Source of the DNA: Halorussus limi
GTDB taxonomy: Archaea; Halobacteriota; Halobacteria; Halobacteriales; Haladaptataceae
NCBI RefSeq assembly: GCF_023238205.1
Contig: NZ_CP096659.1
Location: forward strand, 1,791,626-1,815,625
DNA length: 24,000 nucleotides
Reading direction: 5' to 3'
Shown here: positions 4,711-22,050 of the stretch, piece after piece
Numbering within the stretch: position 1 is the stretch's first letter
Layout: the number at the start of each line of letters is the position of its first letter
Program-made: the position numbers and the translations under genes
Notes under the pieces: model-generated
The model's database searches: none
What the model saw: only the letters and a program-made list of their open reading frames with translations
What the model was told of the DNA's origin: nothing

Positions 4711-5116
4711 ATGAAACCCAGGTCACGTAAGCGGAGAGCTGTCAGAGTTCAAAGTAGCTCAGGACTTAATCGAGAACAATTGTCGTGTCTGTTATACCCC
4801 CGGACAGTACCCGTACGATCTCATTGGAGACCACGACGGAGAACTCTTCAAGATACAAGTAAAGACGGCGAAGAAGAAGCCCAATCAGACCCAAGCATAC
4901 CAGATTCGAACGAAGGGATACGACGGAGATGATGTCGACTTATTCGCGGGCTACATCTCGGAGAAAGACACGGAGTTCTACTTCCCGTACGAAGAGGCTG
5001 GTTCGTACTGCTCGGTGACGTTCACACCACGATACTCCCTCTCCGACCACAACGCAGAACTGGCCCATTTGGCCGACGACCACACGTTCGAGAGTGTGGT
5101 TGACCGTCTCCTATAA
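4711..5116 (+). pseudogene. Small stand-alone PD-(D/E)xK endonuclease (PDDEXK_5-like), disrupted by a 1-nt frameshift after codon 3
   Basis: An open frame at 4715-5116 has no ATG/GTG/TTG near its 5' end, so it is absent from the ORF track. It translates to GHVSGELSEFKVAQDLIENNCRVCYTPGQYPYDLIGDHDGELFKIQVKTAKK...DVDLFAGY... The ATG at 4711 (ATG AAA CCC) joins this frame if A4720 is skipped. The 73-aa Arg-rich ORF in the track (4711-4932) is the out-of-frame continuation. Confidence 0.6.
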
Positions 5117-5117
5117 C

Positions 5118-5402
5118 TCAGTATTTCTCCATCGCCCGGAGAGCCTTCTCAGGCAACTCTGCGAGGTGCTCCTTGTTCTGGTAGTGGGGGTCTCGCTCGT
5201 CCTCCTTATCTTCTTGGTCGCTCTCGTGGGTGGAGTGGTGTTCGTTAGAGGGTTCGGGGACGGAGAGTTCACCGTGCCGACGGTTGTGAATCCGTTGCAT
5301 CGGTGTGTTGCCGGAGTCACGTGATGGCCGCTTGTCGCCGACGGTACTGGGTTTCGAATCGCCAATATCGTGGTGCTTGTCGGAACGACGTTTCTTCCCC
5401 AT
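5118..5402 (-). CDS. Hypothetical highly charged small protein
   Basis: 94 aa from the ATG at 5402 (MGKKRRSDKHHD...EHLAELPEKALRAMEKY). It converges on the previous gene with a 1-bp gap. No family was recognised and codon usage looks only weakly coding. Confidence 0.35.
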   Translation of the reverse strand: MGKKRRSDKHHDIGDSKPSTVGDKRPSRDSGNTPMQRIHNRRHGELSVPEPSNEHHSTHESDQEDKEDERDPHYQNKEHLAELPEKALRAMEKY

Positions 5403-5477
5403 GACCTGACGTTTCAAAGAGCCACCATAAAAAGTTAGTCCCGAACCGCGTTCTCCAGAGATGGTGGAGCTCAGTCA

Positions 5478-5495
5478 CCGTTGTTGGTGGCATGT
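5478..5495 (+). repeat. Motif copy A: CCGTTGTTGGTGGCATGT
   Basis: Read directly from the sequence. It is 17/18 identical to copies B and C. It shares the prefix CACCG with copy B. Confidence 0.85.
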
Positions 5496-5571
5496 AAGTA
5501 GCAGGTGCAAATGTGACTCGGGATATAGAAAACCAGTACTTACTAACCACGAGGGTTCTTTAGAGGTGTAC

Positions 5572-7068
5572 ATGAATTCTCGGGATCGGACTCTGGATGA
5601 ATTAGTGGAGCAGTTTATGGCAAACCCGGGGTCGGCCGAGTCAGAACAATTAGATTTCAAAGCTAAGGAAATAGTTGAGTCCACCGAAGGTAAGCGCGAT
5701 CTTGCGAAGAAAGCGTCTGCAATCGCCAACACAAACGGAGGGACAATTGTCGTTGGAGTGGGTGAAGGTAGTCGTGAAGATATTATTCAGTCGTTCGATG
5801 CTCGATCTGAAATCAAGCGTGATCTTGCGAGCGTATTCCGAGATAACACAAAACCGCCCTTAGACCGACTAACAGAGATAAATATAGAGACGTTGTCGAT
5901 GGGTGCTCGACTGCTAAGGATTGATATTCAGCCTTCTAATACATATCCGATTGAGTTCTATAATCGAGATTCCGACGAATATGTCCCATATCACCGTGTT
6001 GAAGATACGACTCGCGAGATGGCTACTAGTGACATTGTAGAATTCACGAAAAGGCATTCACAGCCGGGAGCAAGTGGGGAGGTTGATCTTGAGGAGTCAA
6101 TCACCGTCAGGACATCTGATATTCAGCTATTCAATGACTCAGACCCAAGAAAATCGCCTGACCATCGGGCAATCCTAAATATAGATCAACACGGTTTGGT
6201 TGTACCAGCAAAGGCATATATTGATAATTCATTCCACAAGTCTTTGACTTTTCATGTGGAAAAGCGCGCTGAGAAAAGAGGTCTTTCGGGTTTGAAGGGA
6301 TTACTGAGGGAAGCCGAGGAGGAATTGAATGCCGATCTCGGATTTGACTTTGGATACGCGATTAAATACGGAACAAAGGAGCTTATCGGAAGAAATTCCG
6401 ATAACTATATTCAGGATATCCAAAACCTTGAGAAAACACTTGAGTTGTTAGGCTGGGAGGACAACAGCGACCCTCGACCCATTGCTATCGCGGGAACACG
6501 ATGTGATTTCGGATTCATTTGGTTTCAGGCTCAATATCATACTGGTAGTCTCTCAAGAATCAAATGCGGACTGATGATGAGTGATATTCCAATAAATAAC
6601 AGCCCACTTAGTTCCGTATTCGGCAACGAGTGGTATGAGCAACACAATTCCCTGAGAAGCGTTCAGCTACGACTGCGTGGCGATGAGGTATCATTATCAA
6701 ACCCAAGAGAGGTTCTTTTAGATGAATCCAGTGGTGCAGGCCGGACAGAGATAATCGCAGATAATCCGTACTTCCAAAATAAGGAAGCAATACTGGAATC
6801 CATAGATAATGACGCTCTTGAACCCTTTATAAATGCAATCTGTGCTGTCGATAGATTACCCTTCGATGTGCGCGGGGGCTACTCCAGTAAGGACATATAT
6901 CACTCTGTCGGCGAGATTCAAATGAGCTATATTCACGCTGTTGTACCTGCATACTTTGTCTGGCCAATGTCTGATCCTCACGTAGTACCTCCCTCTGAAG
7001 ATCCTCCAACCCCGGACTGGCTCGACTCGCTTGGCTCAGACGATGCAGACGAGCGTTCCGATGAATAG
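5572..7068 (+). CDS. AlbA_2 (Schlafen-type) domain protein with an uncharacterised ~360-aa C-terminal region
   Basis: Start moved to the ATG at 5572 (MNSRDRTLDEL), because the upstream 37 codons run through motif copy A. SAESEQLDFKAKE...LAKKASAIANTNGGTIVVGVGEG matches the AlbA_2 signature (E..EFK ... AfANt.GG.i.iGv). I recognise no motif in the C-terminal region. Confidence 0.7.
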   Translation: MNSRDRTLDELVEQFMANPGSAESEQLDFKAKEIVESTEGKRDLAKKASAIANTNGGTIVVGVGEGSREDIIQSFDARSEIKRDLASVFRDNTKPPLDRLTEINIETLSMGARLLRIDIQPSNTYPIEFYNRDSDEYVPYHRVEDTTREMATSDIVEFTKRHSQPGASGEVDLEESITVRTSDIQLFNDSDPRKSPDHRAILNIDQHGLVVPAKAYIDNSFHKSLTFHVEKRAEKRGLSGLKGLLREAEEELNADLGFDFGYAIKYGTKELIGRNSDNYIQDIQNLEKTLELLGWEDNSDPRPIAIAGTRCDFGFIWFQAQYHTGSLSRIKCGLMMSDIPINNSPLSSVFGNEWYEQHNSLRSVQLRLRGDEVSLSNPREVLLDESSGAGRTEIIADNPYFQNKEAILESIDNDALEPFINAICAVDRLPFDVRGGYSSKDIYHSVGEIQMSYIHAVVPAYFVWPMSDPHVVPPSEDPPTPDWLDSLGSDDADERSDE

Positions 7069-7176
7069 CTGAATTCAGTATCGAGAACGGCCTCTGTACT
7101 GATACTCTCCGCCGATTTCCCACTTTTCTGAAATTGACACCTCTGGTCGAGTCACAGTCACCGACGCCGCTACCCA

Positions 7177-7194
7177 CCGCTGCTGGTGGCATGT
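7177..7194 (+). repeat. Motif copy B: CCGCTGCTGGTGGCATGT
   Basis: Read directly from the sequence. It lies 108 nt after the AlbA_2 stop, in the convergent intergenic region before the helicase gene's 3' end. Confidence 0.85.
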
Positions 7195-7378
7195 GCGTCC
7201 TCTCGGGGTTACGGCACCCCATTTAAAGGAAAGAGTGTAATCACAGGAAGGCGGTGGGTTGTGTCGATGGCGGGGAAAGAGATCGTGTATTAGTATTCTA
7301 ATATACGGTTTCTTTCGCGGCCTGTTTGGAAAATCGCCAGAGTGCGGTCGATTCTGGCTGTTTTATTTAAGTAAGGGT

Positions 7379-9385
7379 CTATATCCCGGTCAGGTCGAGG
7401 TAGCCATCCTCCGGGATGTCGCCGTCGAGCATGTAGAGGTACTCGTTGCTCTTCTGCGGGCTCGGACCCCGGTTCACCAGCCCGACATCCATCAGGGTGG
7501 AGAGGAACTGTCGGACGCCCTGTGGGCTGTCGTGCGTGCCGGATACGCTGACGATCTCGGTCGCGGACGACGCCGGGTTCTCACGGAGGTAGTTAACGAC
7601 GGCCTTCTGCTTCTCGGTGTACTTCGTCGGGGTGCTGATCGTGGTGTCCACCATCCCGTCAGGAATCATCGACGTGCGGACGAACACGAGTGCCCGAGGA
7701 GAGTCGTCTTCACGTGCGTACCGACCGATCGCCTGAGCGGTACTGTTCTTCCGGACTGCGTCAAGGATTTTCTTGGCTTTGTCGGCGTCGGGACCTTCGA
7801 ACGCACGGCCGACTCGCTCGGGGTTGCCTTCACAGACGGGGCATTCGTCGCCGCCGCAGTCAGGGCCGCACAGCGTCAACGGTGCGGCGTCGAGACCACG
7901 GGCCGCCAGCAGGTCGAGGACGTAGTCGTCGCCCGGGTCGATGGAGTGGGTGACGTAGCCGAACTTGTGGTGGGAGAACGCGCCGTTGCTTTTCGTACTC
8001 CCACGGGGCATGACCTCTTCGCCGTCGACGAGCTGTTCGACCATCGGCTCCATCGCGTTCGTGGAGATGACGGATTCGAAGTCGTCACCGTACTTGTAAC
8101 GGAGCATCTCGAGCGTGATTTTCTCGGCCGTCTCGTCGACGTTGTGGGTCACGGCGTAGTCCGAGGAGGCGGGTTTGGCCCCGGTGCCGATCTGGACGAC
8201 TTCCAGCCCTCGCTCGTTGACCCGCCACTGGGTGAACGCCTCGTCGTCGATGAACGTGTCGAACTTGATGCCGTCGCCGATGTTCATCCGCCACTCGTGG
8301 ATCGACGGCCAGGCGTCGAGACAGATGATGCTCCGAGCGTTACCCATCTCGGGGATGTCCCAGTACGCTTGCGGCCGGTTCTCGTTGTCGACGACGACCG
8401 TGATTCGGTTGCGACTGTAGCGGAAGTCATCGTCGTCGTTCGCGTCGAATCGGGAGAGTTCGTTGACCGCATATCCAGACCGCCGGCCGTGCGACCCGGG
8501 CTCGTCGTTGAGTGCCCGGTACATGGCCTTGGTGAGTGCAGGCGCCAGTGTGTGGGCGGAGTCGTTCTCGATGAACCAGTCGGGGTCGATCTGGGGTGGG
8601 TCGTCGAGCACCTCGTAGAGCGATTCGAGCCCATCGTCGGCCATCGTGACGAACATTTCCCACGTCTTCACGGGGGCGTCGATCTTCTTGAGCCACGCCG
8701 TGACGATGTCCTGGAACTTCGCCCGTGTCATGTCGTCGTTGTTCCGGTCTCCGATACTCCGCTTGAAGCTGGGGAGCTCGTCCCAGATCATGTTCACGTC
8801 CTGGACCAGGCTCGGGACGTAGGCGAAGTTGTGCTGGGCGTGGACGACGTCCACGGCCGGGTCTCCGTCGTCGTCGCGAGGAATGTCCGACCACTGTTCG
8901 ATGGAGGGGCACGGACAGCACGGAAGGTCGCCGTCGTTGTAGTCTTCGAGGTACTGGTGAGTCTTGCTGAGCGTGTTCCCCGACTCCTCCATCTGCTTGT
9001 GCATCCACTCGCTTGCCGGCTCACCAGTCGGAGTGTTCACGACGCCGTCGTAGTCGCCACTGTAGGTGTTGCACGCTTCGCCGCGGCCCAGGAGACGGTG
9101 GTAGTCGATGTCGTGAGCGTTGCTCTTCCTGACCGCTTTGTCCCGTGCGTCGGTACTGTAGTGGAGGTGGACGACGGGCTCGTCGCCAGTGGCGTGGGGG
9201 AGCTCCGTCCAGTTGGTCGTCGCACCGTTGTACGTTTTCCCGGTTGAGGTAGGTGCGACCATCACCGTGAACGCCCCATTCGACATGTATTCACGGATCT
9301 TTCTCGTGAGCTTCGACTGGAGCTCTTCGGTGGTTGGCCAACCGGAGTCGTTAGAAAGTACATCTAGCCCGGTCGCCAGCGACAT
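7379..9385 (-). CDS. SF2-helicase-like P-loop NTPase with a Cys cluster and C-terminal winged helix; putative replication protein of the element
   Basis: 668-aa ORF. Motifs: Walker A (VAPTSTGKT), Walker B-like (MIWDELP), helicase motif VI-like (QAIGRYAR), a Zn-like cluster (CGPDCGGDECPVCEG), and a C-terminal wHTH-like stretch (KQKAVVNYLRENPASSATEIVSVSG...LSTLMDVGLVNR). Its start overlaps the RHH stop (TAATG). Confidence 0.8.
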   Translation of the reverse strand: MSLATGLDVLSNDSGWPTTEELQSKLTRKIREYMSNGAFTVMVAPTSTGKTYNGATTNWTELPHATGDEPVVHLHYSTDARDKAVRKSNAHDIDYHRLLGRGEACNTYSGDYDGVVNTPTGEPASEWMHKQMEESGNTLSKTHQYLEDYNDGDLPCCPCPSIEQWSDIPRDDDGDPAVDVVHAQHNFAYVPSLVQDVNMIWDELPSFKRSIGDRNNDDMTRAKFQDIVTAWLKKIDAPVKTWEMFVTMADDGLESLYEVLDDPPQIDPDWFIENDSAHTLAPALTKAMYRALNDEPGSHGRRSGYAVNELSRFDANDDDDFRYSRNRITVVVDNENRPQAYWDIPEMGNARSIICLDAWPSIHEWRMNIGDGIKFDTFIDDEAFTQWRVNERGLEVVQIGTGAKPASSDYAVTHNVDETAEKITLEMLRYKYGDDFESVISTNAMEPMVEQLVDGEEVMPRGSTKSNGAFSHHKFGYVTHSIDPGDDYVLDLLAARGLDAAPLTLCGPDCGGDECPVCEGNPERVGRAFEGPDADKAKKILDAVRKNSTAQAIGRYAREDDSPRALVFVRTSMIPDGMVDTTISTPTKYTEKQKAVVNYLRENPASSATEIVSVSGTHDSPQGVRQFLSTLMDVGLVNRGPSPQKSNEYLYMLDGDIPEDGYLDLTGI

Positions 9386-9672
9386 TATTCTCCCCCGAGT
9401 TTGCGTTCGAGCTCCATCCGCTCGTCAAGACGGTCTTGGAGGAAATGGCTGAGATTGACCCGCTCTTCGTACAGGAACTCATCGAGATTCTCACCTATGC
9501 GAATCGCCTTACGCTCCATAGGGGCCTGGCGTTTTTTGCGGCTTGATGGAAACTCCTCCCCCTCCTCATACCACGTTTTGATTTTATCCCTGGCCCACGA
9601 GCTGAAGTTGAGGTGCGTATCTTCGACGAAAGCCGCTTGGTCCTCACGTATCGTAACAGATTTCCGAACCAT
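9385..9672 (-). CDS. Tandem ribbon-helix-helix (CopG/Arc-like) DNA-binding protein
   Basis: 95 aa with two RHH-like modules: KSVTIREDQAAFVEDTHLNFSSWARDKI and KAIRIGENLDEFLYEERVNLSHFLQDRL. It is translationally coupled to the helicase gene. Confidence 0.75.
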   Translation of the reverse strand: MVRKSVTIREDQAAFVEDTHLNFSSWARDKIKTWYEEGEEFPSSRKKRQAPMERKAIRIGENLDEFLYEERVNLSHFLQDRLDERMELERKLGGE

Positions 9673-9940
9673 GTGTCTGTGTTCATACGTAGTTTATTGT
9701 ATTACTTATAATTATTTTATATATCATATCATGTTTGGTTGGTAGAGTGGTATTCTACTTCAGTAGTTACATGTATTCCCGGATGGATTAAAGGACAGAA
9801 TCCACCGTTTACCTCCCCAGAGGATTGATTGCTACCCAGCCGGCGGATTCTGGTCCTGGGGACTATTTCCCCATATGGATATTGACACCTAGAAATTATA
9901 ATTATTCTGGTATACCACCATACTAGGTGATTAGACAATG
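9673..9940. promoter_or_regulatory. AT-rich control region upstream of the RHH-helicase operon: promoter, and possibly the replication origin
   Basis: Hand count gave 27-35% GC at 9661-9780. TATAAAATAATTATAA lies on the minus strand ~35-50 nt upstream of the RHH ATG. A perfect 11-bp direct repeat, TTATAATTATT, occurs at 9706-9716 and 9896-9906. Small palindromes are present (GTAGA-N7-TCTAC, GGATT-N9-AATCC, CCATATGG). Confidence 0.45.
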
Positions 9941-10131
9941 GATACAGGTGATTTTAACTGTTTGCAGAGATGTTTTGAAGCCGCTCACCCCAGGGGTAGC
10001 AGACCGGAAACTGTATTTATTTCCCTGACATTACTCCGGGCGGCGGCCCGACCCACCTCCAGCACGAACGCGCTTCGATTTACCCCGGTACGTTCACGCT
10101 TCGAGGGCTCCGGGGTATTCCACCAGAGCAG

Positions 10132-10149
10132 ACATGCCACCAGCAACGG
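10132..10149 (-). repeat. Motif copy C (minus orientation): CCGTTGCTGGTGGCATGT
   Basis: The plus strand reads ACATGCCACCAGCAACGG. It lies 12 nt from the LAGLIDADG stop codon. It shares a contiguous 17-mer (TGCCACCAGCAACGGCG) with copy D. Confidence 0.85.
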
Positions 10150-10161
10150 CGGATCGCTCCG

Positions 10162-10656
10162 TCAGGGTTGGTCTGCATCCTCGATTACCGCGATGAGCTC
10201 GTCCGCCGACAGGGACGACGGCGCCGACATGTAGTTGATGTCGTCCTTCAGCTGGACGAGTTCCTCCAAGTCGGACTTTGAGAGGGAGTAGCCCGGTTCA
10301 AGGATGTCAAGGGCCTCCGACCAAGTCTCGAACGCCTCGTGTTTCTTGGAGGTGGTGAAGAGGGAACCGCTGGCGACGTGCTCCTCAATCAGCTCACGCA
10401 ACGTGTGACGTTCGTCTCGGCTCGACAACACCCATCGGTATCCTTTGCTGTCGCTCGTCACCGAACCCAACGCGAACCGAGAACGAAATTGATTGAGGAG
10501 GTCTTCTTCATACACACCCATGGTAAGTGAGAAACGCGGGCCGATGTCGAGGTTGTACGCGTACCGGTCGTCGACAGTAGTCGTTAGGTAGAAACTTCCC
10601 TCCCCGGCAATGAATCCGAGGGTGAACGCCAATGACTGATTGTCTAACGCCGTCAT
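10162..10656 (-). CDS. LAGLIDADG-family homing endonuclease, single-motif (homodimer-type), free-standing
   Basis: 164 aa from the ATG at 10656 (MTALDNQSLAFTLGFIAGEGSFYL). LGFIAGEGSF matches the LAGLIDADG motif with the terminal acidic residue as Glu. The size is similar to I-CreI-type enzymes. The longer GTG start at 10770 only adds an unconvincing N-terminal extension. Confidence 0.7.
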   Translation of the reverse strand: MTALDNQSLAFTLGFIAGEGSFYLTTTVDDRYAYNLDIGPRFSLTMGVYEEDLLNQFRSRFALGSVTSDSKGYRWVLSSRDERHTLRELIEEHVASGSLFTTSKKHEAFETWSEALDILEPGYSLSKSDLEELVQLKDDINYMSAPSSLSADELIAVIEDADQP

Positions 10657-10887
10657 CACAGGGTCTCCGGACGGAGTGTATGGAACGTCAACCGACGTAA
10701 GTTTTAGCCTCGGTGGAATCACTAACCGCTGATAAATTCTGGGGAGATTTACTGCTATAAGAAATCCCACCTAAAACCCTGGTTTTTGGACGAGGTTTTA
10801 TCTGTCTGTAAAAGCCGTATAAGCACTTCTCATGCCCTGGCACTTTGGCGAATGAGGAAGTTCCAGTCGCCGAACTGTGGTGATGTA

Positions 10888-11232
10888 ATGGCTCAATCAG
10901 ACTGCAACACAGCCGTCGTGATCGACGTCGACACAGACGAGTCGACCGGACAAGGGGTCGCCGAGTTCAAAGAACGGCTTGCAGATGAACTCGCAGAGGA
11001 TTATGATTACTACATCGACGACGAATCACCGATTTACCTCGCTGAGGACATCATCTCTCAGACCCTTGTCGACACGATGGAACTGGTTTGTGCAGACATC
11101 ACCGCACGAACACTACTCGATTGGATAAAGGACCGATCAGAGCAAGAGGGTGAAACGTACATAGTCAACCAGTTTCACCAACTCCGATTTACCGAGATTC
11201 GGATTGAGAATCAAGAAGACGACCGGACATAA
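10888..11232 (+). CDS. Hypothetical acidic protein, divergent from the LAGLIDADG gene
   Basis: 114 aa from the ATG at 10888 (MAQSDCNTAVVIDVDTDE...). Composition is acidic and halophile-like. The TTG-start extension in the track looks non-coding. No family was recognised. Confidence 0.5.
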   Translation: MAQSDCNTAVVIDVDTDESTGQGVAEFKERLADELAEDYDYYIDDESPIYLAEDIISQTLVDTMELVCADITARTLLDWIKDRSEQEGETYIVNQFHQLRFTEIRIENQEDDRT

Positions 11233-11261
11233 TCGTTCTCGGAGCAAGCCACCACACGCCC

Positions 11262-11279
11262 ACGTGCCACCAGCAACGG
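11262..11279 (-). repeat. Motif copy D (minus orientation): CCGTTGCTGGTGGCACGT
   Basis: The plus strand reads ACGTGCCACCAGCAACGG. It lies 29 nt after the stop of the 10888-11232 gene. Confidence 0.85.
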
Positions 11280-11636: not shown

Positions 11637-12518
11637 ATGGCTGAAATCGGTGCCCAATGGGACGCCATCGGCCCTTGGTGGGACGATTACGTACAAGAAC
11701 AAGAGAGAGGTCTGATTGAGCTTCGAGAGTTGCTGGAAGAGCTCAATCAGACGTGGAAACAGAGCGGAAGCAAGTTCGACGAAGATCCACTGATAGGCGA
11801 TTGGTCAGAGACGAGTCCGCAAGCTGGTCCACTGCGGACAAACCAAGAGGAAAACTGGTCGCAGTGGCTGGCTCATCTTCTTCGGGACTCAACGGGGGAA
11901 TTCTCCGCCAAGTTACTTGACTCCCACTTCGACACCGCTCCCACTCACGTTCGTTGCGAGCGCGCCTACCACGATGAAGAGCTCCACGATCGACGGGTAG
12001 ACATACTCGCGGAGTTCGGGAGCCAAGGCGTGACGATTGAGGTCAAAATAGGGGACGAGCACTACGAGAAGACGCCACAGACGGCGTACCTGACGGAGAA
12101 GCACCACCAACGAAATCTGGACTGGACACACTATCTGCTTCTCCCAGACTCAAGAGAAGATGCGCTACAAGACGCTTTTAGCGAACGACTGACTGACGAC
12201 GAAAATCGTGAGCCAACAATTACCGCCACGGTGCCGGAAGAACGGGAAATAACTGTCATCTACTGGTCCGAGGTTGCACAAGCCCTCCGCAGAACGCTTC
12301 TCGCCGACATCGAACACAGTACGCACTGGGCCGCGAGCGCCTACCTGTTCACCACGCTAATCGAAGAGCAGATTCTTCAGCTTTACGCGCTTCCCTCGCT
12401 GGAAGACTACCGTACCGCGTCGATCAGTATTTCCGACATTGAACGGCTTCAATCGATCAACCCAGACGACCAAATTCAGTATCTTGACGCCCTCTTGGAG
12501 GAGATTAACCATGGATGA
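11637..12518 (+). CDS. PD-(D/E)xK nuclease-like protein (PDDEXK_4-like architecture)
   Basis: 293-aa ORF. EENWSQWLAHLLRDS is followed by RRVDILAEFGSQGVTIEVKIGDEHYEKTPQTAYL (D...ExK...Q..Y). Its stop overlaps the start of the next gene (ATGGATGA). Confidence 0.65.
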   Translation: MAEIGAQWDAIGPWWDDYVQEQERGLIELRELLEELNQTWKQSGSKFDEDPLIGDWSETSPQAGPLRTNQEENWSQWLAHLLRDSTGEFSAKLLDSHFDTAPTHVRCERAYHDEELHDRRVDILAEFGSQGVTIEVKIGDEHYEKTPQTAYLTEKHHQRNLDWTHYLLLPDSREDALQDAFSERLTDDENREPTITATVPEEREITVIYWSEVAQALRRTLLADIEHSTHWAASAYLFTTLIEEQILQLYALPSLEDYRTASISISDIERLQSINPDDQIQYLDALLEEINHG

Positions 12519-13101: not shown

Positions 13102-13291
13102 TTCCGTAGCTCGGTTTGAGCCTCGGGAGGTTACTGGGGTTGAGCCGGTGCGAGAGCCGACCTCCGACGCGCGCGCATGCCAACAGTAACACTAGAATGC
13201 CGAAGGGCGTTGAGCCCAATCAGCGTGTAACGTACTCCAAGACCTCTGGTCGGCATGGGTTCACCCCGACGTCGCGGTCGGTGGCTACCAG

Positions 13292-14293
13292 TCAGATGCC
13301 GTTGAGATATTCTCTCCGTAGCTCCATTTTCTCTCGTTTAGTCCGTTTGTCGTAGTGTTTGTCGAGTACGTTGCCGCTCATATCCAGCCGTTCAGATGCG
13401 ACCTCTTTCGGAACATCCTGCTTCCGAAGTGCTGTCGCTGCACCTTTACGGAGCGCGTGGGGTGCAACGCTCGACGGACACTTGCTGGCGGTGTTGTAAC
13501 TCGTCGCTTCACACTCCTGGAGATCCCGATCGTGTGGACACTCGTTCGTGTAGTGGCATGGACGCGTAACTGTGTAGATATTCCGCTGGATTGTCGTGTA
13601 GTGGAGGCGACCTTGCGTCCCACCAAGTAACGGCATCCGTCCGTACTCGTCCTCGACGTATGGGTGATGCATATCGAGGAAGGCGTCAAGGACCGAGGCA
13701 ACGTCGTCGTTGATGTACACGTCGCGCTCGCTCCGCTCTTTATTCTTGAGCGGTGTTTCTTCATCTGGTCTGTGTCGCAGCGAGAGTACGTTCGCCCGAT
13801 TGTCGTAGTCGCCGATGTCTAGACCCGTTAGGGCACTTGCTCGCATCCCCGTGTGCCAGAGGATGTAGAAAGCGGTGTGACGAAGCGTCGCGTACTCGTA
13901 GTCTTCGCAGTATTCGAGAATCATCTCCGCTTCTTTCTGGAGGATGTGCACGTCACTCACGTCTTCACCCAGTTGTATCGTTGGGAGCCGGATTTTTCGG
14001 CCGACGCCTTTTGGGGCGACGTTGATGTCTTCGCAGAACTCGACGAACTGACGAACAGTACTCAGGTGGTTCTTGACGGTCACTTTTGCTACGTCGCCCA
14101 TTAGCCATTGTTTGAACTCTTGGAGTAGGCTTCCGGTGATTTCGTTCATGTCGTCGAGTCCGACCTCGTCGGTCCAGGTGAGGAATTTGTCGAGTCGGTA
14201 CTTGTGGTTCTGAGCGGTTGCCGCGGCGAGTTCTTGCTGCACTTCAGCTAGGTATTCGTTGACCGCTTCTCGCGGTGACGTTGGTTCGAGCAT
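13292..14293 (-). CDS. Tyrosine recombinase / phage-type integrase
   Basis: 333-aa ORF with an N-terminal SAM-like core-binding region. Catalytic signatures: HTGMRASAL (Arg I), HALRKGAAT (HxxR), and VLDKHYDKR (Tyr). A Cys/His-rich insertion (CHYTNECPHDRDLQEC...KC) precedes box II. The gene is intact, so it is not a split SSV-type integrase. Confidence 0.9.
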   Translation of the reverse strand: MLEPTSPREAVNEYLAEVQQELAAATAQNHKYRLDKFLTWTDEVGLDDMNEITGSLLQEFKQWLMGDVAKVTVKNHLSTVRQFVEFCEDINVAPKGVGRKIRLPTIQLGEDVSDVHILQKEAEMILEYCEDYEYATLRHTAFYILWHTGMRASALTGLDIGDYDNRANVLSLRHRPDEETPLKNKERSERDVYINDDVASVLDAFLDMHHPYVEDEYGRMPLLGGTQGRLHYTTIQRNIYTVTRPCHYTNECPHDRDLQECEATSYNTASKCPSSVAPHALRKGAATALRKQDVPKEVASERLDMSGNVLDKHYDKRTKREKMELRREYLNGI

Positions 14294-14526: not shown

Positions 14527-14579
14527 GGACTCGCTGACCTTCGCGAACGGACCGTATTCGCTTGATTCTAGCGAGTCCA
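14527..14579 (+). pseudogene. Possible second, heavily decayed tRNA-Ala-like remnant
   Basis: GGACTCG ... CCTTCGCGAA ... TTGATTCTAG CGAGTCC A. The 7-nt ends pair perfectly as an acceptor stem. AGCGAGTCCAC is an exact 11-bp repeat of 14484-14494. The internal sequence resembles an Ala anticodon-loop region, but the D-arm and T-loop are missing or degenerate. Confidence 0.3.
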
Positions 14580-14791
14580 CGAGATTTTCGCGACGCAACG
14601 ACGAGTGTTCGCGATTTCTCGCAGTTATCCGCTCACTGTCTTGCGGTTAGAGAGAATTGCGGATTTCCGACTACTGACCGCGCCTCCTCGTTTGGCCGAC
14701 CGTGTTCTTCCTCGACGAGGACGGCGACTGTTGCCAACCGGGCACTGACTTATCACAAACCTTCTTTTTCCTCGCATCTCCGTACAGCGAT

Positions 14792-15250
14792 ATGAGCGAC
14801 TTCCTTGCCTTCGTCGCACTCCTGTGGTTCATCCTCGCGGTCGCAGTAGCGTTCCACGCAACGGGTCACGACCGGAGCGGACTGCTCTGGTTCGTTATCG
14901 TGTTTCTCACAGGCATCTTTGGCGTCGTGTTCTACCTGCTGGCGATTACCAGCGGGTCGCCAAACGAATCCACCGAACACATCCCCGACAGTGGCCCGAC
15001 AGCTCGCGACTTCGAGCAACGAGTCCGCAATCAGGAAGCCCTGTTTCTCGTCGTCGAGGAACACCTCCGTAACCACGGCGTCGTCACGAAGACAGGATTT
15101 CAGAACACGATTTACCCTAAACACCCGGTCGGGTACGAGTCCGAGAGCAACTGGTGGAACGAGTTCCTGCTTCCCGAACTCGAAAGCAGGGAGCAGTTCG
15201 AGCGGATGGACGGTATCGAAAACGGCTGGAAACTGGCGAACGACGACTAA
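14792..15250 (+). CDS. Small membrane protein with an N-terminal two-helix (PLD-N-terminal-like) domain and a soluble C-terminal region
   Basis: 152 aa from the ATG at 14792. MSDFLAFVALLWFILAVAVAFHATGHDRSGLLWFVIVFLTGIFGVVFYLLAI gives two TM helices. The GTG-start extension in the track is unconvincing. Confidence 0.55.
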   Translation: MSDFLAFVALLWFILAVAVAFHATGHDRSGLLWFVIVFLTGIFGVVFYLLAITSGSPNESTEHIPDSGPTARDFEQRVRNQEALFLVVEEHLRNHGVVTKTGFQNTIYPKHPVGYESESNWWNEFLLPELESREQFERMDGIENGWKLANDD

Positions 15251-15302
15251 TTGCGAAATACATCACGCCGTGGGGTGTCCGTCGGCGGGTCGGGCTATCG
15301 CG

Positions 15303-17861
15303 TCACTCCGAGTTCAGGCCGGTTCTAAAGCGCGTGAACACGTTCCCCAGACCCTTCGTTCCGCTTCCGCGGCCGTTGCCCACTCGGGACCGCCCCGGCG
15401 TGAGCGGGGAGTCGGTGACGCTCCCGGTCCGCTCGACCGACAGCGTCGCCTTCGGACCGTCCCGCCCGACGGTGAGTTCGTAGTCGCCCGCCTCGACGAC
15501 TTTCGGTCGGAGCGCCAGCACGTCGTCGGGGACGACTTCGAGCGCCGAGAGGTAGAGGTCGACTTCGACGCGTTTCGTCTCCCCGGCGTCGAGCGACACG
15601 CGCTCGAAGCCCAGCAGTCGGCGCTTGGGCTGGAGGACCGACCCGTACGACTGGGTGTTGTACACCTCGACGACGTGGTCTCCCGCGACGTTGCCCGCGT
15701 TGGTAACGTCCACGCGAACCGTGGCGCTCGACTGCTTCGACGGGTCCGAGACGCTCCCCGGCGACACCGACGCGTTTCCGTACTCGAAGTCGGCGTACGA
15801 GAGGCCGTGGCCGAACTCGTACAGCGCCGTGTTGTCGCTCCCGCCCGTGCTCGTCGGCGGCGCGCGGTCGTACTGGACCGGCACGGTCCCGACGTTCCGA
15901 GGCCAACTGAACGCGAGTTTGCCCGACGGGTTGTACGCTCCGACGAGCGTGTCGGCGATGGCGACCCCGCCGTCGCTACCGGGCTGGCCCGCGAACAGGA
16001 GCGCGTCGAGAGCGTCGTGGGTCTCGGGCGACCCTAACGGGCTTCCGGCCAGCATGACGCCGACCACGGGCGTGTCGTCTCCGGTCTCCTCGTTCACGAC
16101 GCTCAGAAGTTCCCGCTGGGCGTCGTCGAGTTCGAGGTCGTCTCGGTCGCCGAACCCCTCGTTGTGGGGCCCCTCGCCGAGGACGACCACGACCGCGTCG
16201 GAGTCGGGCGCCGCCGACCGCACGTTCCGCTCCTGCTCGTCGGTGAAGTCGAAGTTCCCGTTCGCGTCGGTCTGGTCGCCCGACCACCAGCGTTCGTTGT
16301 CGAACGACGTCGGGACGTGCGTGACGCTCGAGAACCGGTCGCGGAGTTCGTCGGCGACGAGGGTCTGGCGCGGGAACGGCCCGCCGCCGCTCGGCCCCTG
16401 CCAGCCGAGCGTCCACCCGCCGTGTTGCATCAGCGGCCGGGTGTTGTTGCCGTTCCCGTCGACCCCGGGTCCGGTCAGCAGGACGTCCTCGCTCCCCGAC
16501 AGCGGGAGTACGTCGCCCTCGTTCTTGAGCAGGACGAGCGACTCCTTGGCGAGTCGCTCGGAGGTCTCTCGTGCCCCGCCGAGCGTCTCCGACAGCCGCG
16601 ACTCGTCGACGGTGGGTCGGTCGAACAGTCCGAGGTCGGCCTTGAGCGCGAGAATTCGTCTGACGGCGTCGTCGATGCGCTTGCGCTTGATTTCGCCGCC
16701 TCGAACGAGGTCGACGACGGTTTCGATGAACTCGACCGGGCCGGGCGCGTCGCCGCCGTTTCCGATCATGTACATGTCGACGCCGGCGTTGATGACCTCC
16801 TTGGTCGCCTCCCGGAAGTCGGGCGCGTAGTCGTGGTTGGTCATCAGGCGGTGGATGTCGTCGTAGTCGGAGATGATGACGCCCTCGAACCCGTAGGCCT
16901 CGCGCAGCACCCGCGTCAGCAACCAACTCGACGCGTGGGCCGGTTTCCCGTTGACGGCACCGCTGTTGACCATCACCGTCCCCGGACCGGCGTCGAGCGC
17001 GCTGCGGTACGGCGGCAGGACGTTCGTCCGGAGGTCGCGAAGCGACGTGTCGGCGGGCGCCCTGTCGTTGCCGTTGTTGGGAATCGAGTACCCGGCGAAG
17101 TGCTTGACCGTGGAGGTCAGGCGGTCGGCGCTCTCCAAGGCCTCCACGCGGGCGCGGGACACCTCGCCCTCGATGAGCGGGTCCTCGCTGATTCCCTCGT
17201 AGAACCGGCCCCAGCGGGGGTCGCGCTGGAGGTCGGTCGTCGGTGCGAACGTCCAGTGGGCGCCCATCGCCGCCGTGGACTCGGCGGTGTGTTTCTCGGC
17301 TTCCTTCACCAGGTCGACATCCCGGGCCGCGCCCATGTTCAACCGCTGGGGGAGCGACGTCGCCCCTTCGAGCAGTCCGTTGCCGTGGGTGGCGTCGACG
17401 CCCCAGAGGAACGGGATATCGTGGGGCGCGTTCTCCAGGTTGTACTCCTGAAGCGCGTTGATGCCCTTCACGACCGCGTCCCCGTCGAACGACGGCGGTT
17501 TCGCGCCGCCCGAGAGGATGCTCCCGACGCCGAGTTCGCTGAAGTACGCGCCGACCGTGTCGACGCCGAAACTGTCCGGAACGTTCGGTTCGTCGGGTTC
17601 GGGGTCGAACGAACTGACCGCCACCTGCGTCATCTGGGCGACCTTCTGCTCGAGCGTGAGGTCCCGGAGGTACTTCTCGACGTTCACGCCGGTGCGAGCG
17701 GCGACCTGCTCCGCGCTCGCACCCATCGCCGCGCTCCCCGCGGCGGCCCCCGCGGCCTTCATGAACGTCCGTCGGGATGCCTTCGTCGGCGGCGCGTCCT
17801 CACTCGCCGAGCGTCGAGAGTCGTTCTGTTCACTTTCGGTGTCGTCGGAATACTCGGACAT
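15303..17861 (-). CDS. Secreted glycoside hydrolase family 3 (beta-glucosidase/beta-xylosidase-like) with a Tat signal
   Basis: 852-aa ORF. It has a twin-arginine signal (SRRTFMKAAGAAAGSA) and GH3 motifs (VDATHGNG, KHFAGYS, GFEGVIISDYDDI). The C-terminal part is Fn3-like. Composition is acidic. Confidence 0.9.
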   Translation of the reverse strand: MSEYSDDTESEQNDSRRSASEDAPPTKASRRTFMKAAGAAAGSAAMGASAEQVAARTGVNVEKYLRDLTLEQKVAQMTQVAVSSFDPEPDEPNVPDSFGVDTVGAYFSELGVGSILSGGAKPPSFDGDAVVKGINALQEYNLENAPHDIPFLWGVDATHGNGLLEGATSLPQRLNMGAARDVDLVKEAEKHTAESTAAMGAHWTFAPTTDLQRDPRWGRFYEGISEDPLIEGEVSRARVEALESADRLTSTVKHFAGYSIPNNGNDRAPADTSLRDLRTNVLPPYRSALDAGPGTVMVNSGAVNGKPAHASSWLLTRVLREAYGFEGVIISDYDDIHRLMTNHDYAPDFREATKEVINAGVDMYMIGNGGDAPGPVEFIETVVDLVRGGEIKRKRIDDAVRRILALKADLGLFDRPTVDESRLSETLGGARETSERLAKESLVLLKNEGDVLPLSGSEDVLLTGPGVDGNGNNTRPLMQHGGWTLGWQGPSGGGPFPRQTLVADELRDRFSSVTHVPTSFDNERWWSGDQTDANGNFDFTDEQERNVRSAAPDSDAVVVVLGEGPHNEGFGDRDDLELDDAQRELLSVVNEETGDDTPVVGVMLAGSPLGSPETHDALDALLFAGQPGSDGGVAIADTLVGAYNPSGKLAFSWPRNVGTVPVQYDRAPPTSTGGSDNTALYEFGHGLSYADFEYGNASVSPGSVSDPSKQSSATVRVDVTNAGNVAGDHVVEVYNTQSYGSVLQPKRRLLGFERVSLDAGETKRVEVDLYLSALEVVPDDVLALRPKVVEAGDYELTVGRDGPKATLSVERTGSVTDSPLTPGRSRVGNGRGSGTKGLGNVFTRFRTGLNSE

Positions 17862-18023
17862 ACAGTATTAATCAATAAACACTCGAACACGAATTAATAT
17901 TTTGTAACTAAATGTGATACGAAACGGTCGCGGAGCGAACCTCGCCCGAACCGCTCCCCCGGTCGCGAGCGCGATGACTGGCGGGTCTGGACGGCGTCAG
18001 ACGAGCGTCATACGCCGAAACAC

Positions 18024-18035
18024 AGGGTTTACCAC
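18024..18035 (+). promoter_or_regulatory. Promoter element AGGGTTTACCAC (TATA-like TTTA 31 nt upstream of ATG 18059)
   Basis: An identical 12-mer with identical spacing is found upstream of the 19187 gene. The spacing fits leaderless or short-leader haloarchaeal transcripts. Confidence 0.5.
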
Positions 18036-18058
18036 GGATGAACGTAAGGAACAGCACA

Positions 18059-19096
18059 ATGAGTATCAGGTGTTCGCTCCTCGGCCACAGCTACGGGGAC
18101 GCAGAAATCGAACGGGAACGCGAGGAGCAGGGAAGCGAAGTCGTGGTCACGGTCAGGGAGTTCGAGGAGTGCGAACGGTGCGGCGAGCGCAAGATAGTGA
18201 CCGAGAACAAGGAGGTCACCGCGCTCCAGTCGCCAGCGCCCGACCTCGAATCCGCCGAGTCCGACTCCGGGATGGGGTCCCGGTCCGGCGAGTCGGGGGC
18301 GACCGGCGCGACCGGACCGAGCGCGGGCGCGACGACCGACGCGACCGTGGGCGTCGAGACCGGTGGGGCAACCGACGCCGAAGTCACCGCGGCGGGCGAG
18401 GACGACGCCGAAATCATGACCGACTCGACCGACTCCGGGGGCGCGTCCGCCTCGTCGTCGGGCGGGTCGGCGTCCGGCGGGGCGTCCGCGGCGGACGCGT
18501 CGACCGGGTCCGCGTCGAGCGACACCGCCGAGACCGGGGGCGAGGCGGCCACCGCCGAGGGCGACTTCGAGCAGGCCCCGTCGGCCGCGGACGACGACGG
18601 CGTCATCTTGGACGACGACGCCGAGAGCGACGCCGAGAGTCGCACGCCCGGTGAGTGGCCCGAGGCCGAGACGACCCATCCGGCCGAGACCGACGAGGGT
18701 CCCGGCGAGTGGCCCGCGGTCGGCCGCGAGGACGAAGACGAGGGGTACGACGCCGACCCCGACGGTTCCGGGAGCGCGGACGTGGAGTTCGGCGGCGGAC
18801 TGACCCCCGAGTCCGCGCCCGGGGTGGACGACGGCGAGACCGAGGAAGTCGAGTTCGTCAACGCCGAGGGCGACGCGCTCCAGTCGAAAGACGCCGGCGA
18901 GAACGGCGGCCAACTCTCGTCGGGCATCTCGGCCGGCGCGGACGCGCCCTCGCTGTCGGGGCCGGCCGACGACCCCGACGTGGACGCCGAGTTCGTCTGC
19001 CCCGAGTGCGACTACAGACAGGACGTGGCCGGGTCGTCGCTCCGGGCGGGCGACATCTGCCCCGAGTGCGCGAGGGGCTACCTCGCACAGGAGTAG
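18059..19096 (+). CDS. Zinc-ribbon protein with a long acidic low-complexity linker
   Basis: Start set at the ATG at 18059 (MSIRCSLLGH). The N-terminus carries C..H...CERCG and the C-terminus carries CPECD...CPECARG. They are separated by a ~230-aa D/E/S/G/A-rich region. Confidence 0.7.
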   Translation: MSIRCSLLGHSYGDAEIEREREEQGSEVVVTVREFEECERCGERKIVTENKEVTALQSPAPDLESAESDSGMGSRSGESGATGATGPSAGATTDATVGVETGGATDAEVTAAGEDDAEIMTDSTDSGGASASSSGGSASGGASAADASTGSASSDTAETGGEAATAEGDFEQAPSAADDDGVILDDDAESDAESRTPGEWPEAETTHPAETDEGPGEWPAVGREDEDEGYDADPDGSGSADVEFGGGLTPESAPGVDDGETEEVEFVNAEGDALQSKDAGENGGQLSSGISAGADAPSLSGPADDPDVDAEFVCPECDYRQDVAGSSLRAGDICPECARGYLAQE

Positions 19097-19151
19097 GGAG
19101 ACGGATTAAACGGGACGAAGCGTCGGATTCAAGAGGAAGAACGACGCGAAA

Positions 19152-19163
19152 AGGGTTTACCAC
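19152..19163 (+). promoter_or_regulatory. Promoter element AGGGTTTACCAC (TTTA 31 nt upstream of ATG 19187)
   Basis: Exact repeat of 18024-18035 with the same distance to the start codon. Confidence 0.5.
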
Positions 19164-19186
19164 ACCCTGTCCAAAGGGAGATTACC

Positions 19187-19582
19187 ATGAAGGAATACAA
19201 GATGCGACGCGGCGAACATCTGGAGGACCGCATCCCGGACATGGAGGCGAAAGTCGAGGAGTACTTCGGCGAAGTCACCGGAACCGAGGAGCACAACGGC
19301 CACGACCTCTACGTCGTCGAGGACCCCGACAACCCGGTCTTCGACCGCATCCTCGCGGGCGTCGCCGAGTACAGCGGCAAGAAGGACAAACTCGCCGTCC
19401 ACTTCGAGGAGCGCGACGCCGAGGAGGTCATCGCCGAGGGCCACGCCGACGCCGCCGCCGACGCCGTGGACAAGAAGAACGACTTCCTGCTCGAAGCCAC
19501 GGGCCGCGACGCCAAGGCCCGCCGCGAGTCGATGAAGCGGCAGGTCGAGGACGACGCCGAGAAACCCGACGGCGTCTCGTAA
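19187..19582 (+). CDS. Conserved-looking small acidic protein of unknown function
   Basis: 131-aa ORF (MKEYKMRRGEHLEDRIPDMEAKVEEYFG...). It has clean coding composition and a promoter element at the expected distance. Confidence 0.7.
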   Translation: MKEYKMRRGEHLEDRIPDMEAKVEEYFGEVTGTEEHNGHDLYVVEDPDNPVFDRILAGVAEYSGKKDKLAVHFEERDAEEVIAEGHADAAADAVDKKNDFLLEATGRDAKARRESMKRQVEDDAEKPDGVS

Positions 19583-19654
19583 CCGGCCGGTCGGGGATGT
19601 CACTACTTCCTTCTCTTCGATAGCGTTACCTCGCGGCGAACGCTATCTCGACCG

Positions 19655-20068
19655 ATGAACTACGAACTCCGCGAAGCGACGCCCTCGCCCGACGAGTACG
19701 TCGCTCTCCGCGAGGCGGCCGGCATGGGACAGCGGTCCGAAGCGGCCGCCCGGCGCGGCTTGCCGAACAGCCTCCACGCCGTCACGGCCGTCGCGTCGGC
19801 GACCGACCGAGTCGTCGGCATGGGCCGCCTCGTCGGCGACGGCGGGTGCTTCTATCAGATAGTCGACGTTGCGGTCCATCCGGACCATCAGGGCGTCGGT
19901 CTCGAAACGAGAGTGGTGTCGAACCTCCTCGACTACCTCCGGGAGAACGCGCTCGACTCGGCGTACGTGAGCCTGATAGCCGACGTGGACGACTTCTACG
20001 ACCGATTCGGGTTCGAGGCGACGGCCCCCGAATCGAAGGGCATGGCGCTGTCGGTCGGAGACCTGTAG
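19655..20068 (+). CDS. GNAT-family N-acetyltransferase
   Basis: 137 aa. YQIVDVAVHPDHQGVGLETRVVSNLLDYL is the acetyl-CoA binding motif A (Q/RxxGxG/A). The C-terminal FYDRFGFE is typical of the family. Confidence 0.85.
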   Translation: MNYELREATPSPDEYVALREAAGMGQRSEAAARRGLPNSLHAVTAVASATDRVVGMGRLVGDGGCFYQIVDVAVHPDHQGVGLETRVVSNLLDYLRENALDSAYVSLIADVDDFYDRFGFEATAPESKGMALSVGDL

Positions 20069-20101
20069 CGAGAGAGACCGGAACGGACGCGGAGGACGCG
20101 C

Positions 20102-20461: not shown

Positions 20462-20502
20462 GGTGTAGATGTAGGGTCCGGAGGGGTCGTAGGACTTTGG
20501 GT

Positions 20503-22002: not shown

Positions 22003-22050
22003 GGACGGACGAAAGGTCTACAGAAGGATAAAAGGGTGGGCGGACTCGGA

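Follow-up and report, generated by a model that had tools for sequence, protein, structure and literature searches.

The window analyzed here is a 24,000-nucleotide (nt) stretch of DNA from Halorussus limi, of which positions 1 to ~14500 belong to an integrated, plasmid-like element of low GC content (45-58% over positions 1 to ~15000, with a jump near 15000 to ~68% beyond). Within this element a short, asymmetric motif recurs around the gene for a helicase resembling XPD and DinG. The motif has been kept in the same layout in about 20 related elements of haloarchaea, where it lies mainly between genes, brackets the helicase module with a fixed polarity, tends to be uniform within an element, and is associated with the points at which homology between elements breaks off. 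Haloarchaeal integrated elements hold much defense and accessory content (AlbA_2/Schlafen-like, LAGLIDADG, type I restriction-modification and NucS-like genes), and how they gather and swap this cargo is poorly understood.

Copies of the motif in the Halorussus limi element

The helicase module, the copies of the motif and the genes between them are arranged as follows. Copies beyond the exact pattern were sought with a position-weight matrix (PWM).

5478..5495, + strand: copy A, CCGTTGTTGGTGGCATGT, 77 nt upstream of the AlbA_2 start codon; PWM score 25.3
5572..7068, + strand: AlbA_2/Schlafen-like ATP-binding gene, cargo between A and B
7177..7194, + strand: copy B, CCGCTGCTGGTGGCATGT, ~185 nt past the helicase stop codon and antisense to the helicase
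7195..7378, - strand: conserved non-coding region downstream of the helicase, conserved as DNA in ~14 elements, with copy B at its distal edge
7379..9385, - strand: XPD/DinG-like SF2 helicase of 668 amino acids (aa) with Walker A/B motifs and conserved cysteines; core gene of the family
9385..9672, - strand: putative tandem ribbon-helix-helix (RHH) protein, 95 aa, recognized by sequence pattern only; the gene overlaps the helicase start
9673..9940, no strand: AT-rich non-coding region between copy C and the RHH-like gene, a candidate promoter or unwinding region
10132..10149, - strand: copy C, CCGTTGCTGGTGGCATGT, the upstream bracket copy, a perfect match to the consensus
10162..10770, - strand: LAGLIDADG endonuclease gene, 202 aa, cargo between C and D
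10852..11232, + strand: acidic protein gene, cargo between C and D; start uncertain (10786-10880)
11262..11279, - strand: copy D, CCGTTGCTGGTGGCACGT, oriented as C and 30 nt past the acidic-protein gene
13174..13194, - strand: fifth, degenerate copy, TAGTGTTACTGTTGGCATGCG, found by the PWM scan and oriented as C and D

A search with the exact pattern CCGYTGYTGGTGGCAYGT returned copies A to D and nothing else, and 100 dinucleotide-preserving shuffles of the window gave 0 matches. This confirms the four copies that an earlier note on this DNA (the original prediction) had reported. Their fine structure was also as described there: A and B have CACCG in common, C and D carry a common 17-mer (CGCCGTTGCTGGTGGCA), and a second TGGTGG follows the first by 11 and 12 nt in C and D, respectively. 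Helical phasing of this second unit was considered and rejected, as the start-to-start distances of 17, 18 and 23 nt are not periodic. When the copies were aligned with 60-nt flanks, likeness among the four was limited to ~20 nt. No further copy was found in the window at up to 3 mismatches to the 18-mer. The fifth copy lies ~100 nt past the integrase stop codon, on the strand of the integrase, and copies likewise lie directly past the integrase gene in two relatives (L138 and L141).

All four copies are intergenic, as the original prediction stated. A mechanically called open reading frame (ORF; 5461-7068) takes in copy A, yet the true start codon of AlbA_2 comes later, at 5572, since DNA homology to AlbA_2 genes elsewhere begins at 5571/5572. 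The layout also held: B and C are inverted around the replication module and each same-orientation pair brackets accessory genes, an arrangement that recurs throughout the family. Neighboring copies are 1.1-2.9 kb apart; two are on the + strand and three on the - strand, and relatives show the same pattern. Copy B is the orthologous downstream bracket copy, present in nearly all relatives. Copy C precedes the RHH-like gene by 460 nt and follows the LAGLIDADG stop codon by 12 nt, and in L137 a copy adjoins a LAGLIDADG gene in the same configuration.

Several readings of the motif letters were set aside. The reverse complement could be read as a leaderless start (ATG CCA CCA), but the ATG is not conserved and the resulting ORFs differ. 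A resemblance to a tRNA 3' end (ACATGCC-A-CCA) comes with no T-arm upstream, and the CCA is not conserved in TGTTGGCA variants. A local hairpin, CCACC-N6-GGTGG, is good in A and B only. No RNA gene was found at the motif in tRNA and Rfam scans of the window, and nothing coincided with the copies in a bacterial-type promoter and terminator scan, whose bearing on archaea is slight. Copies B, C and D happen to hold the E. coli Chi octamer GCTGGTGG (7182-7189, 10137-10144 and 11267-11274), for which copy A has GTTGGTGG; this is probably a coincidence, since the octamer is not conserved in relatives (core TGKTGGCA).

A family of haloarchaeal elements shares the motif

The relatives are haloarchaeal contigs that encode homologs of the helicase, labeled here with L numbers (L134, L137, L148, L186 and so on). 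About 20 elements bear the motif, and the helicases of the elements compared are 33-73% identical. The general form of the motif is CG-N4-TG(G/T/A)TGGCA-Y, 16-18 bp in length, asymmetric and without dyad symmetry. Hits picked by the 8-mer core alone have a G at position -5 in 51 of 60 cases. At PWM >=14 we obtained 64 hits, compared with 3.4 in shuffled sequences. Intergenic DNA makes up ~13% of the sequence and holds 45 of 69 hits; this count and the orientation statistics below rest on crude longest-ORF gene calls. The density of the motif is 0.30/kb in motif-bearing elements and 0.013/kb in 303 kb of other haloarchaeal DNA, a 23-fold enrichment.

Elements of two helicase clades carry the motif, the core clade and a second one (L176, L183, L184 and L186); it was not detected in more distant helicase clades, including a relative fused to a PrimPol domain. 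A search of these distant clades for an analogous bracket repeat, together with de novo word counts, gave no convincing equivalent; GC-rich coding words dominated. Core variants (TGGTGGCA, TGTTGGCA, TGATGGCA and TGGTAGCA) are identical in 74 of 102 within-element pairs, whereas 33 would be expected. The L186 copies (2366-2440, 5109-5180 and 6011-6082) share an extended unit of ~40 nt, AGAGCATCAnTT..CTG..CCGACAnTGCCAACAG, beyond the family core, so that in some elements the functional or duplicated unit may be larger.

Collection-wide scans with the exact 18-mer gave at least 120 single matches, in unrelated bacteria, among 596 Gb of genome contigs and 13 single matches in viral contigs. These scans are uninformative either way, because both numbers are close to chance expectation. 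Near-identity DNA searches of plasmids and phages found nothing, as did a protein search of phages, and viral contigs searched for related loci yielded no relatives. A plasmid protein search found only distant relatives, one of which (L201) lacks the motif. We found no description of the motif or of the element family in the literature.

Orientation of the copies follows the helicase module

Orientations were counted with the helicase placed on the + strand. The first copy downstream of the helicase is antisense in 16 of 17 elements, at 67-676 nt (mostly 146-351) from the stop codon, and upstream copies are sense in 18 of 21 cases (Fisher p = 1.3e-6, for elements that are related and so not independent). 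Strand orientation thus switches at a landmark linked to replication, from 18 sense and 3 antisense copies upstream to 16 antisense and 1 sense at the first downstream position. In nearly every element two inverted copies point inward at the helicase module, one upstream and one ~190 nt past the stop codon, and these counts indicate that the inverted bracket formed by B and C in the window is conserved across the family. Additional copies near a bracket copy mostly share its orientation and separate variable cargo, as in these three examples:

Window (flipped): upstream 13174+, D+, C+; downstream B-, A-
L148: upstream 5642+, 9304+; downstream 12157-, 14213-, 15983-, 20782-
L186: none upstream on the contig; downstream 2417-, 5160-, 6062-

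In L148 the copies extend up to 9 kb from the helicase gene. Sense copies return farther downstream in several elements (8 of 21 further downstream copies), and several elements show a second, divergent orientation switch soon past the helicase gene. L134 makes this switch in a perfect inverted repeat of 15 bp whose arms are 22 nt apart; the spacers of L183 and L184 are 85-92 nt. Copy orientation agrees with the direction of the neighboring gene only about half of the time. Because orientation tracks position relative to the helicase module and not gene direction, a role at the level of DNA is indicated, not one at the level of the transcript.

The three upstream exceptions all fall at one orthologous site within a conserved gene of ~370 aa. 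A motif-like site lies at nucleotide 389 of this gene (L137 13893-13913, L139 2719-2739, L148 8529-8549, L176 1299-1319) and reads by eye as V-G-G-G codons (...GTT/GTC GGT GGT GGC...). The exceptions are probably a coding coincidence, because the stretch reads as glycine codons. This gene has a small, divergently oriented PadR-like gene as its partner; 12 nt past the PadR-like gene, L139 and L148 carry a true copy.

Breakpoints of homology cluster at the motif

Loci were compared with each other by blastn, and the ends of high-scoring segment pairs (HSPs) were related to the copies, each pair of loci being counted in both directions. Of 59 informative ends, 17 lay within 30 nt of a copy, compared with 1.9 expected at random and 5.2 under an intergenic-only null (P<0.0002). 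Cargo genes differ between related elements where the copies sit. Signed offsets show that common DNA mostly passes through the motif and ends 1-29 nt beyond it, which places the breakpoints at or next to the motif and no more finely than that.

Individual comparisons illustrate this turnover. L145 and L154 have in common a 1.77-kb segment bounded by two sense copies. L186 and L145 form a pair of occupied and empty sites: L186 reads helicase-m1-a-m2-b-m3-X and L145 reads helicase-m-X, where m is a copy of the motif, and the DNA beyond the single downstream copy of L145 is that found beyond the third copy of L186. On its helicase side the L145 site has the flank of m1 and on its far side that of m3, and these hybrid flanks put the joint inside ~12 nt of the motif. 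In L149 and L183 the DNA outward from the motif is 93-100% identical, although their helicases are only ~35% identical; a 172-aa gene of L149 occupies the place of the 92-nt spacer between the divergent copies of L183. In L134 the equivalents of B and A are 130 nt apart with no gene between them.

The cargo itself can be found elsewhere. AlbA_2 genes 75-79% identical to that of the window lie in other haloarchaeal islands that lack the motif, indicating that the site belongs to the backbone and not to the cargo. The homology runs from the start codon to a few bases past the stop codon, which implies that the gene moved as a bare ORF. DNA identity is 74-77% (window 5571-7074; L202 10001-11503; L204-L206), and the AlbA_2 genes elsewhere adjoin Mrr-like, PLD-like and second AlbA_2 genes.

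Genes and tRNA end of the element

The helicase gene is annotated as hypothetical, and its conserved cysteines possibly form an Fe-S-type insertion. Its protein sequence is identical to that of a protein encoded on the Halorussus limi chromosome. Its AlphaFold model (mean predicted local distance difference test score, pLDDT, of 67; residues 60-310 mostly 75-94) matches XPD, DinG and CasDinG with a Foldseek E of ~3e-7 and TM-scores of 0.2-0.28, low values that are expected for a multi-domain model. By structure match, the C-terminus (~residues 590-655) forms a MarR-like winged helix. Distant relatives of the helicase are fused to an N-terminal PrimPol domain (PF09250), which supports a replication role. 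It seems unusual for a plasmid-like element to have an XPD-like helicase as its core gene. The helicase-RHH operon of the original prediction is thus borne out for the helicase by its XPD/DinG-like fold; the RHH assignment of the second, 95-aa protein comes from sequence pattern only, and a Pfam search gave no match to it. Relatives of this protein occur in L138, L155 and L149/L151.

The non-coding region past the helicase stop codon is ~180 nt long and is kept in ~14 elements though the proteins are only ~50% identical (in L134, 9990-10200). In the window it holds, in order, a TATA-like TTAAATAAA, CGCAGTCTTGCGATTTT, an AT-centered palindrome, a second CGCAGTCATGCGGTTTT-like unit and TTTAAAT; there are thus two CGCAGTCTTGCGATTTT-type units and a second TATA-like box. 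The AT-centered palindrome of L148 is ~45 nt long, GTCCCCGG..CATAAGA..TCTTATG..CCGGGGAC. This region may be an origin or a small-RNA locus.

The end of the element inside the window is marked by two further features.

13292..14293, - strand: XerC/D-like tyrosine integrase, with relatives 62-64% identical in L148 and L141
14470..14493, + strand: tRNA 3' fragment GGGTTCAAATCCCAGCGAGTCCAC (T-arm and acceptor strand), a probable attachment (att) remnant at the element end

A tRNA scan of the window found no complete tRNA, only this 3' fragment. The integrase next to a tRNA fragment identifies the region as the integrase-proximal part of a tRNA-integrating element, of which one end lies inside the window. 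The fragment, unlike the motif, is probably the att site. Part of it, the 11-bp AGCGAGTCCAC, recurs 87 nt later at 14570-14580, and in L148, whose integrase is 63% identical, the same fragment occurs three times (1497, 1648 and 1739) upstream of the integrase, which suggests repeated or tandem integrations at one tRNA. Related integrases lie next to tRNA-Thr (L137) and tRNA-Leu (L138). Two identities for the motif were rejected on this basis and on layout. It is not the att site of the integrase, as the tRNA fragment sits at the element end and the motif copies lie 1-9 kb inside. Nor is it a transposon terminal inverted repeat: the copies are nested and multiple, inspection by eye showed no direct repeat on the outer sides of B and C, and the ORFs scanned yielded no transposase family.

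Further features of the window are as follows. A NucS_C-like gene (205-1269, + strand), a DUF4268 gene (1272-2222, - strand) and a gene for a small PadR-like winged-helix protein of 73 aa (2378-2599, - strand) are common to L148, L141, L134, L138 and L139. In L134, L138, L139, L148 and L149, and not in the window, the DUF4268 gene is preceded at ~50-110 nt by a motif copy, which is sense in L149 and antisense in the other four. A 293-aa ORF without a family hit (11637-12518, + strand) shows by eye a D...E-x-K pattern (VDILAEF...VTIEVKIGDE) reminiscent of PD-(D/E)XK nucleases. In the host part, positions 20643-20733 hold tandem CGGTCGTCGTTTCGGTCGCCGTTTCGCC-type units with a period of 12-27 nt within a long ORF, and many GC-rich repeat families over 15000-24000 look like codon repeats of acidic proteins.

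Interpretation of the motif

In our reading the motif is a family-specific, strand-polar cis-element of tRNA-integrating, plasmid-like haloarchaeal elements that are built on an RHH-like gene and an XPD/DinG-like helicase with a winged helix. Our preference, held tentatively and at somewhat short of even confidence, is that the motif is a protein-read polar boundary site of the replication module which doubles as a recombination-prone joint. The fixed positions, the polarity centered on the module, the asymmetry, the uniformity within elements and the independence of integrase type all favor this reading; asymmetry in particular fits a polar binding site better than a recombinase core.

In mechanistic terms our best guess is a binding site for a protein of the helicase module. 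A DNA-binding protein of the element would recognize the motif, the first candidate being the C-terminal winged helix of the helicase, with an RHH-type protein, the small PadR-like protein or a host factor as alternatives. An acidic residue occupies position 4 of the recognition helix of the winged helix in all 4 elements with the TGTTGGCA variant and in 2 of 15 others, a weak and post hoc correlation that L149 and L183 contradict; co-variation of the motif variant with the helicase tree or with the RHH proteins gave no clean pattern. Binding would give polarity to a DNA transaction centered on the module, either oriented loading of the helicase or arrest of a fork or translocase. The inward-pointing inverted pair delimits the helicase module, with the other copies at cargo joints. 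Joints would form at the motif for two reasons: otherwise divergent modules have no other conserved DNA in common, and polar sites with a protein bound to them may provoke breaks. Motif sites would in this way become preferred joints for the gain and loss of cargo and for the swapping or inversion of modules. We infer, then, a bound protein and a link to replication, with recombination as a consequence of the site and not its purpose.

A bolder version, which we consider unlikely but worth stating, is that the motif belongs to a system not described before in archaea: the winged helix of the element's XPD/DinG-like helicase, or a partner protein, would read the strand-polar site, the inverted pair would orient loading or arrest forks, and breaks induced by arrest would capture and swap defense cargo. 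To our knowledge, no strand-polar sequence read by a helicase or translocase has been described in archaea.

A number of points weigh against our preferred reading. Copies and flanks are identical in L149 and L183, whose ~35% identical helicases have differing recognition helices; no single candidate reader is kept throughout the family, the RHH-type proteins vary from one element to the next, and the core variants are scattered over the helicase tree. Isolated copies that share ~20-40 nt of flank between unrelated cargo would be explained more simply by exchange precisely at the site, and polarity could also arise passively, from repeated insertion at two founder sites. Finally, the motif-bearing elements are related to one another, so that counts are not of independent events, and the gene calls behind the intergenic and orientation statistics are crude.

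Alternative explanations

The strongest rival, which we regard as possible though doubtful, is that the motif is a dedicated site-specific recombination site, similar to those of shufflons, integrons or pdif modules, for inserting, deleting, exchanging and inverting modules. The recombinase would be the tyrosine integrase of the element acting at secondary sites, a host enzyme, or an unrecognized one, and two inverted founder sites around the helicase module would have grown by insertions into same-orientation arrays. This would account well for the fact that such arrays divide unrelated cargo, for the enrichment of HSP ends at copies, for the two-copy-bounded segment common to L145 and L154, and for the contrast between m1-a-m2-b-m3 in L186 and a single m in L145, with a joint within ~12 nt of the motif. 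It also fits the backbone arc (integrase ... DUF4268-RM), which runs in opposite directions in L134 and L138 between copies whose orientation is unchanged. A tyrosine recombinase is encoded in each of the long elements, exchange between copies could produce the uniformity within elements, and isolated copies and the hybrid empty site would find a simpler account here.

However, the integrase gene abuts a tRNA 3' end, and both integrase families and target tRNAs differ among elements that share the motif. The site lacks dyad symmetry or a spacer architecture, no enzyme is conserved, and the TAA-N6-8-TTA of dif-like sites (PMC11840125) is absent. Cargo does not carry the site, as the AlbA_2 homologs without a motif show. 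One segment found in both L145 and L154 is attached to the motif at its CG end in the former and adjoins the GGCA end of a copy in the latter, and genes of one family run with their flanking copies in L145 but against them in L134; these two comparisons show that the motif is no simple system of conservative recombination. A number of breakpoints are 25-220 nt away from the motif, and deletion between short direct repeats requires no dedicated enzyme. The proposal that the copies are recombination sites for cassettes thus survives in part. Breakpoints at copies, the L186/L145 pair of occupied and empty sites and the L134 arrangement speak for it, but its integron-like or own-integrase form is disfavored: the probable tRNA att is unlike the motif, at least two integrase families with different tRNA targets share the motif, AlbA_2 homologs occur elsewhere without it, and conservative exchange at the motif alone leaves some of the rearrangements unexplained.

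A signal acting on transcription or on the transcript (a terminator, a stoperator-like roadblock, a promoter element or an RNA processing site) is improbable. Its appeal lies in the intergenic positions of the copies, in those that sit 12-30 nt past a same-strand stop codon (copy C; L137 8845; L148 9304; L139 3489; L138 6540) and in the TATA-like boxes near copy B. Yet the distance from TATA-like box to motif varies from 28 to 63 nt; there is no T-run, conserved hairpin or Rfam match; the ATG of the reverse complement is not conserved, with short ORFs that differ between copies; and orientation matches gene direction about half of the time while tracking the helicase module almost without exception.

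We give still less credence to a third proposal, that the neighboring LAGLIDADG endonuclease recognizes the motif and, by cleaving the copies, would drive homing-like repair and exchange of cargo. With its size of 16-20 bp and its asymmetry, the motif would suit an enzyme of this family. All four LAGLIDADG genes (in the window, L137, L148 and L155) lie within ~250 nt of a copy, and the copy beside the L148 gene has a mutated core, TGGTGACA. Any cargo in these slots would nevertheless be expected near a copy, and the position of the gene relative to the motif differs in every element. Copy C, which adjoins the gene of the window, is a perfect consensus, neither disrupted nor diverged. As the same bracket layout occurs in ~20 elements and the gene in only 4 of them, the LAGLIDADG target fails as a general explanation.

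That the motif is a functionless chance or historical repeat, such as the remnants of a decayed mobile element, is scarcely credible: the copies are short, with no transposase and no target-site duplication visible by eye, but 0 copies are expected by chance, the 23-fold enrichment over other haloarchaeal DNA stands, and orthologous positions are kept while helicases are 33-58% identical and flanking non-coding DNA is otherwise unalignable. We set aside a small share of our confidence for readings other than those listed.

Whatever its reader, the motif provides a searchable signature (CG-N4-TGKTGGCA-Y), a layout rule (an inward-pointing bracket with outward arrays) and a defined family of elements. 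The signature can be used to delimit modules and to predict cargo slots in haloarchaeal genomes and metagenomes. Three questions become testable: which protein reads the motif, whether it orients replication or the helicase or serves as a recombination site, and whether cargo turns over without it.

Comparison with known systems

The motif resembles several known systems and has the defining features of none. In the shufflon of plasmid R64, asymmetric sfx repeats of ~19 bp occur in several copies and both orientations next to the gene of the tyrosine recombinase Rci. The present elements likewise have multi-copy asymmetric repeats in both orientations that separate segments, and the orientation pattern survives inversions. 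The segments here are whole gene modules, in contrast to the alternative gene ends of a shufflon, the integrase is XerC/D-like and sits next to a probable tRNA att site, and inversion is seen only as a fixed difference, the backbone arc of L134 against L138. Archaeal tyrosine recombinases were unrelated to Rci in a review (PMC8371274).

The pdif modules of Acinetobacter are accessory modules bounded by short conserved sites, and evidence for their exchange is comparative; both statements apply to the motif. A dif-type site spans 28 bp: a 6-bp spacer separates two imperfect inverted arms of 11 bp each, and TAA-N6-8-TTA is conserved (PMC8371274, PMC11840125). Unlike Xer/dif and pdif sites, the motif is asymmetric and lacks both the 11-6-11 arms and TAA...TTA. 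As with integron attC sites, same-orientation copies flank single accessory genes, and an empty and an occupied site can be paired. In contrast to attC, an imperfect palindrome of 57-141 bp carried on the cassette, the motif has 16-18 bp and no foldable palindrome and is borne by the backbone; cargo lies in both orientations, and there is no IntI-type integrase or attI/Pc arrangement. Against the NCBIfam XerA/integron-integrase model, the integrase of the window scores 44 bits, where the cut-off is 220.

An archaeal parallel may be found in the Sulfolobus conjugative plasmids pING and pNOB8, which, in work credited to Stedman et al. 2000 and Greve et al. 2004, reportedly carry a ~16-bp motif at the borders of rearranged regions. 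That motif is likewise multi-copy, sits at exchange borders and belongs to an archaeal plasmid family; sequence, host lineage and plasmid family differ, and no polar bracket of a replication module is known from those plasmids. The stoperators of cluster A mycobacteriophages are asymmetric 13-bp sites in many copies within short intergenic regions, all bound by one phage-encoded reader (gp71 in L5). The motif shares the many asymmetric copies in intergenic DNA; stoperators, however, follow the direction of transcription, whereas the motif follows position relative to the helicase module.

Replication origins offer a partial likeness as well. Like origin recognition boxes (ORBs) and iterons, the motif forms polar inverted repeats that flank an initiator-type gene and an AT-rich region. 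Unlike them, the copies are unclustered: the inner pair is 2.9 kb apart with a gene between, and others lie many kilobases off. Plasmid iterons are tandem, closely spaced direct repeats by the rep gene, while here the pair nearest the helicase is inverted, so that the iteron proposal, in its classical form, fails on copies kilobases apart and not clustered. An Orc1/Cdc6 gene is also lacking, as is any match to the ORB core.

Further parallels are polar motifs such as Ter/Tus, the Ter sites of RTP, KOPS with FtsK-gamma, and Chi with RecBCD, whose readers include winged helices (RTP and FtsK gamma). These share with the motif a short, strand-polar sequence that switches orientation at a landmark related to replication, and such sites are recombination hot spots. 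They are bacterial and work at the scale of a chromosome, whereas the motif has 3-8 copies on an archaeal element of 15-30 kb; RecBCD is not known from haloarchaea. If the bolder version given above is true, the polar-site system would be a mobile-element analog of Ter/RTP, KOPS/FtsK-gamma or Chi, and an engine of modular evolution.

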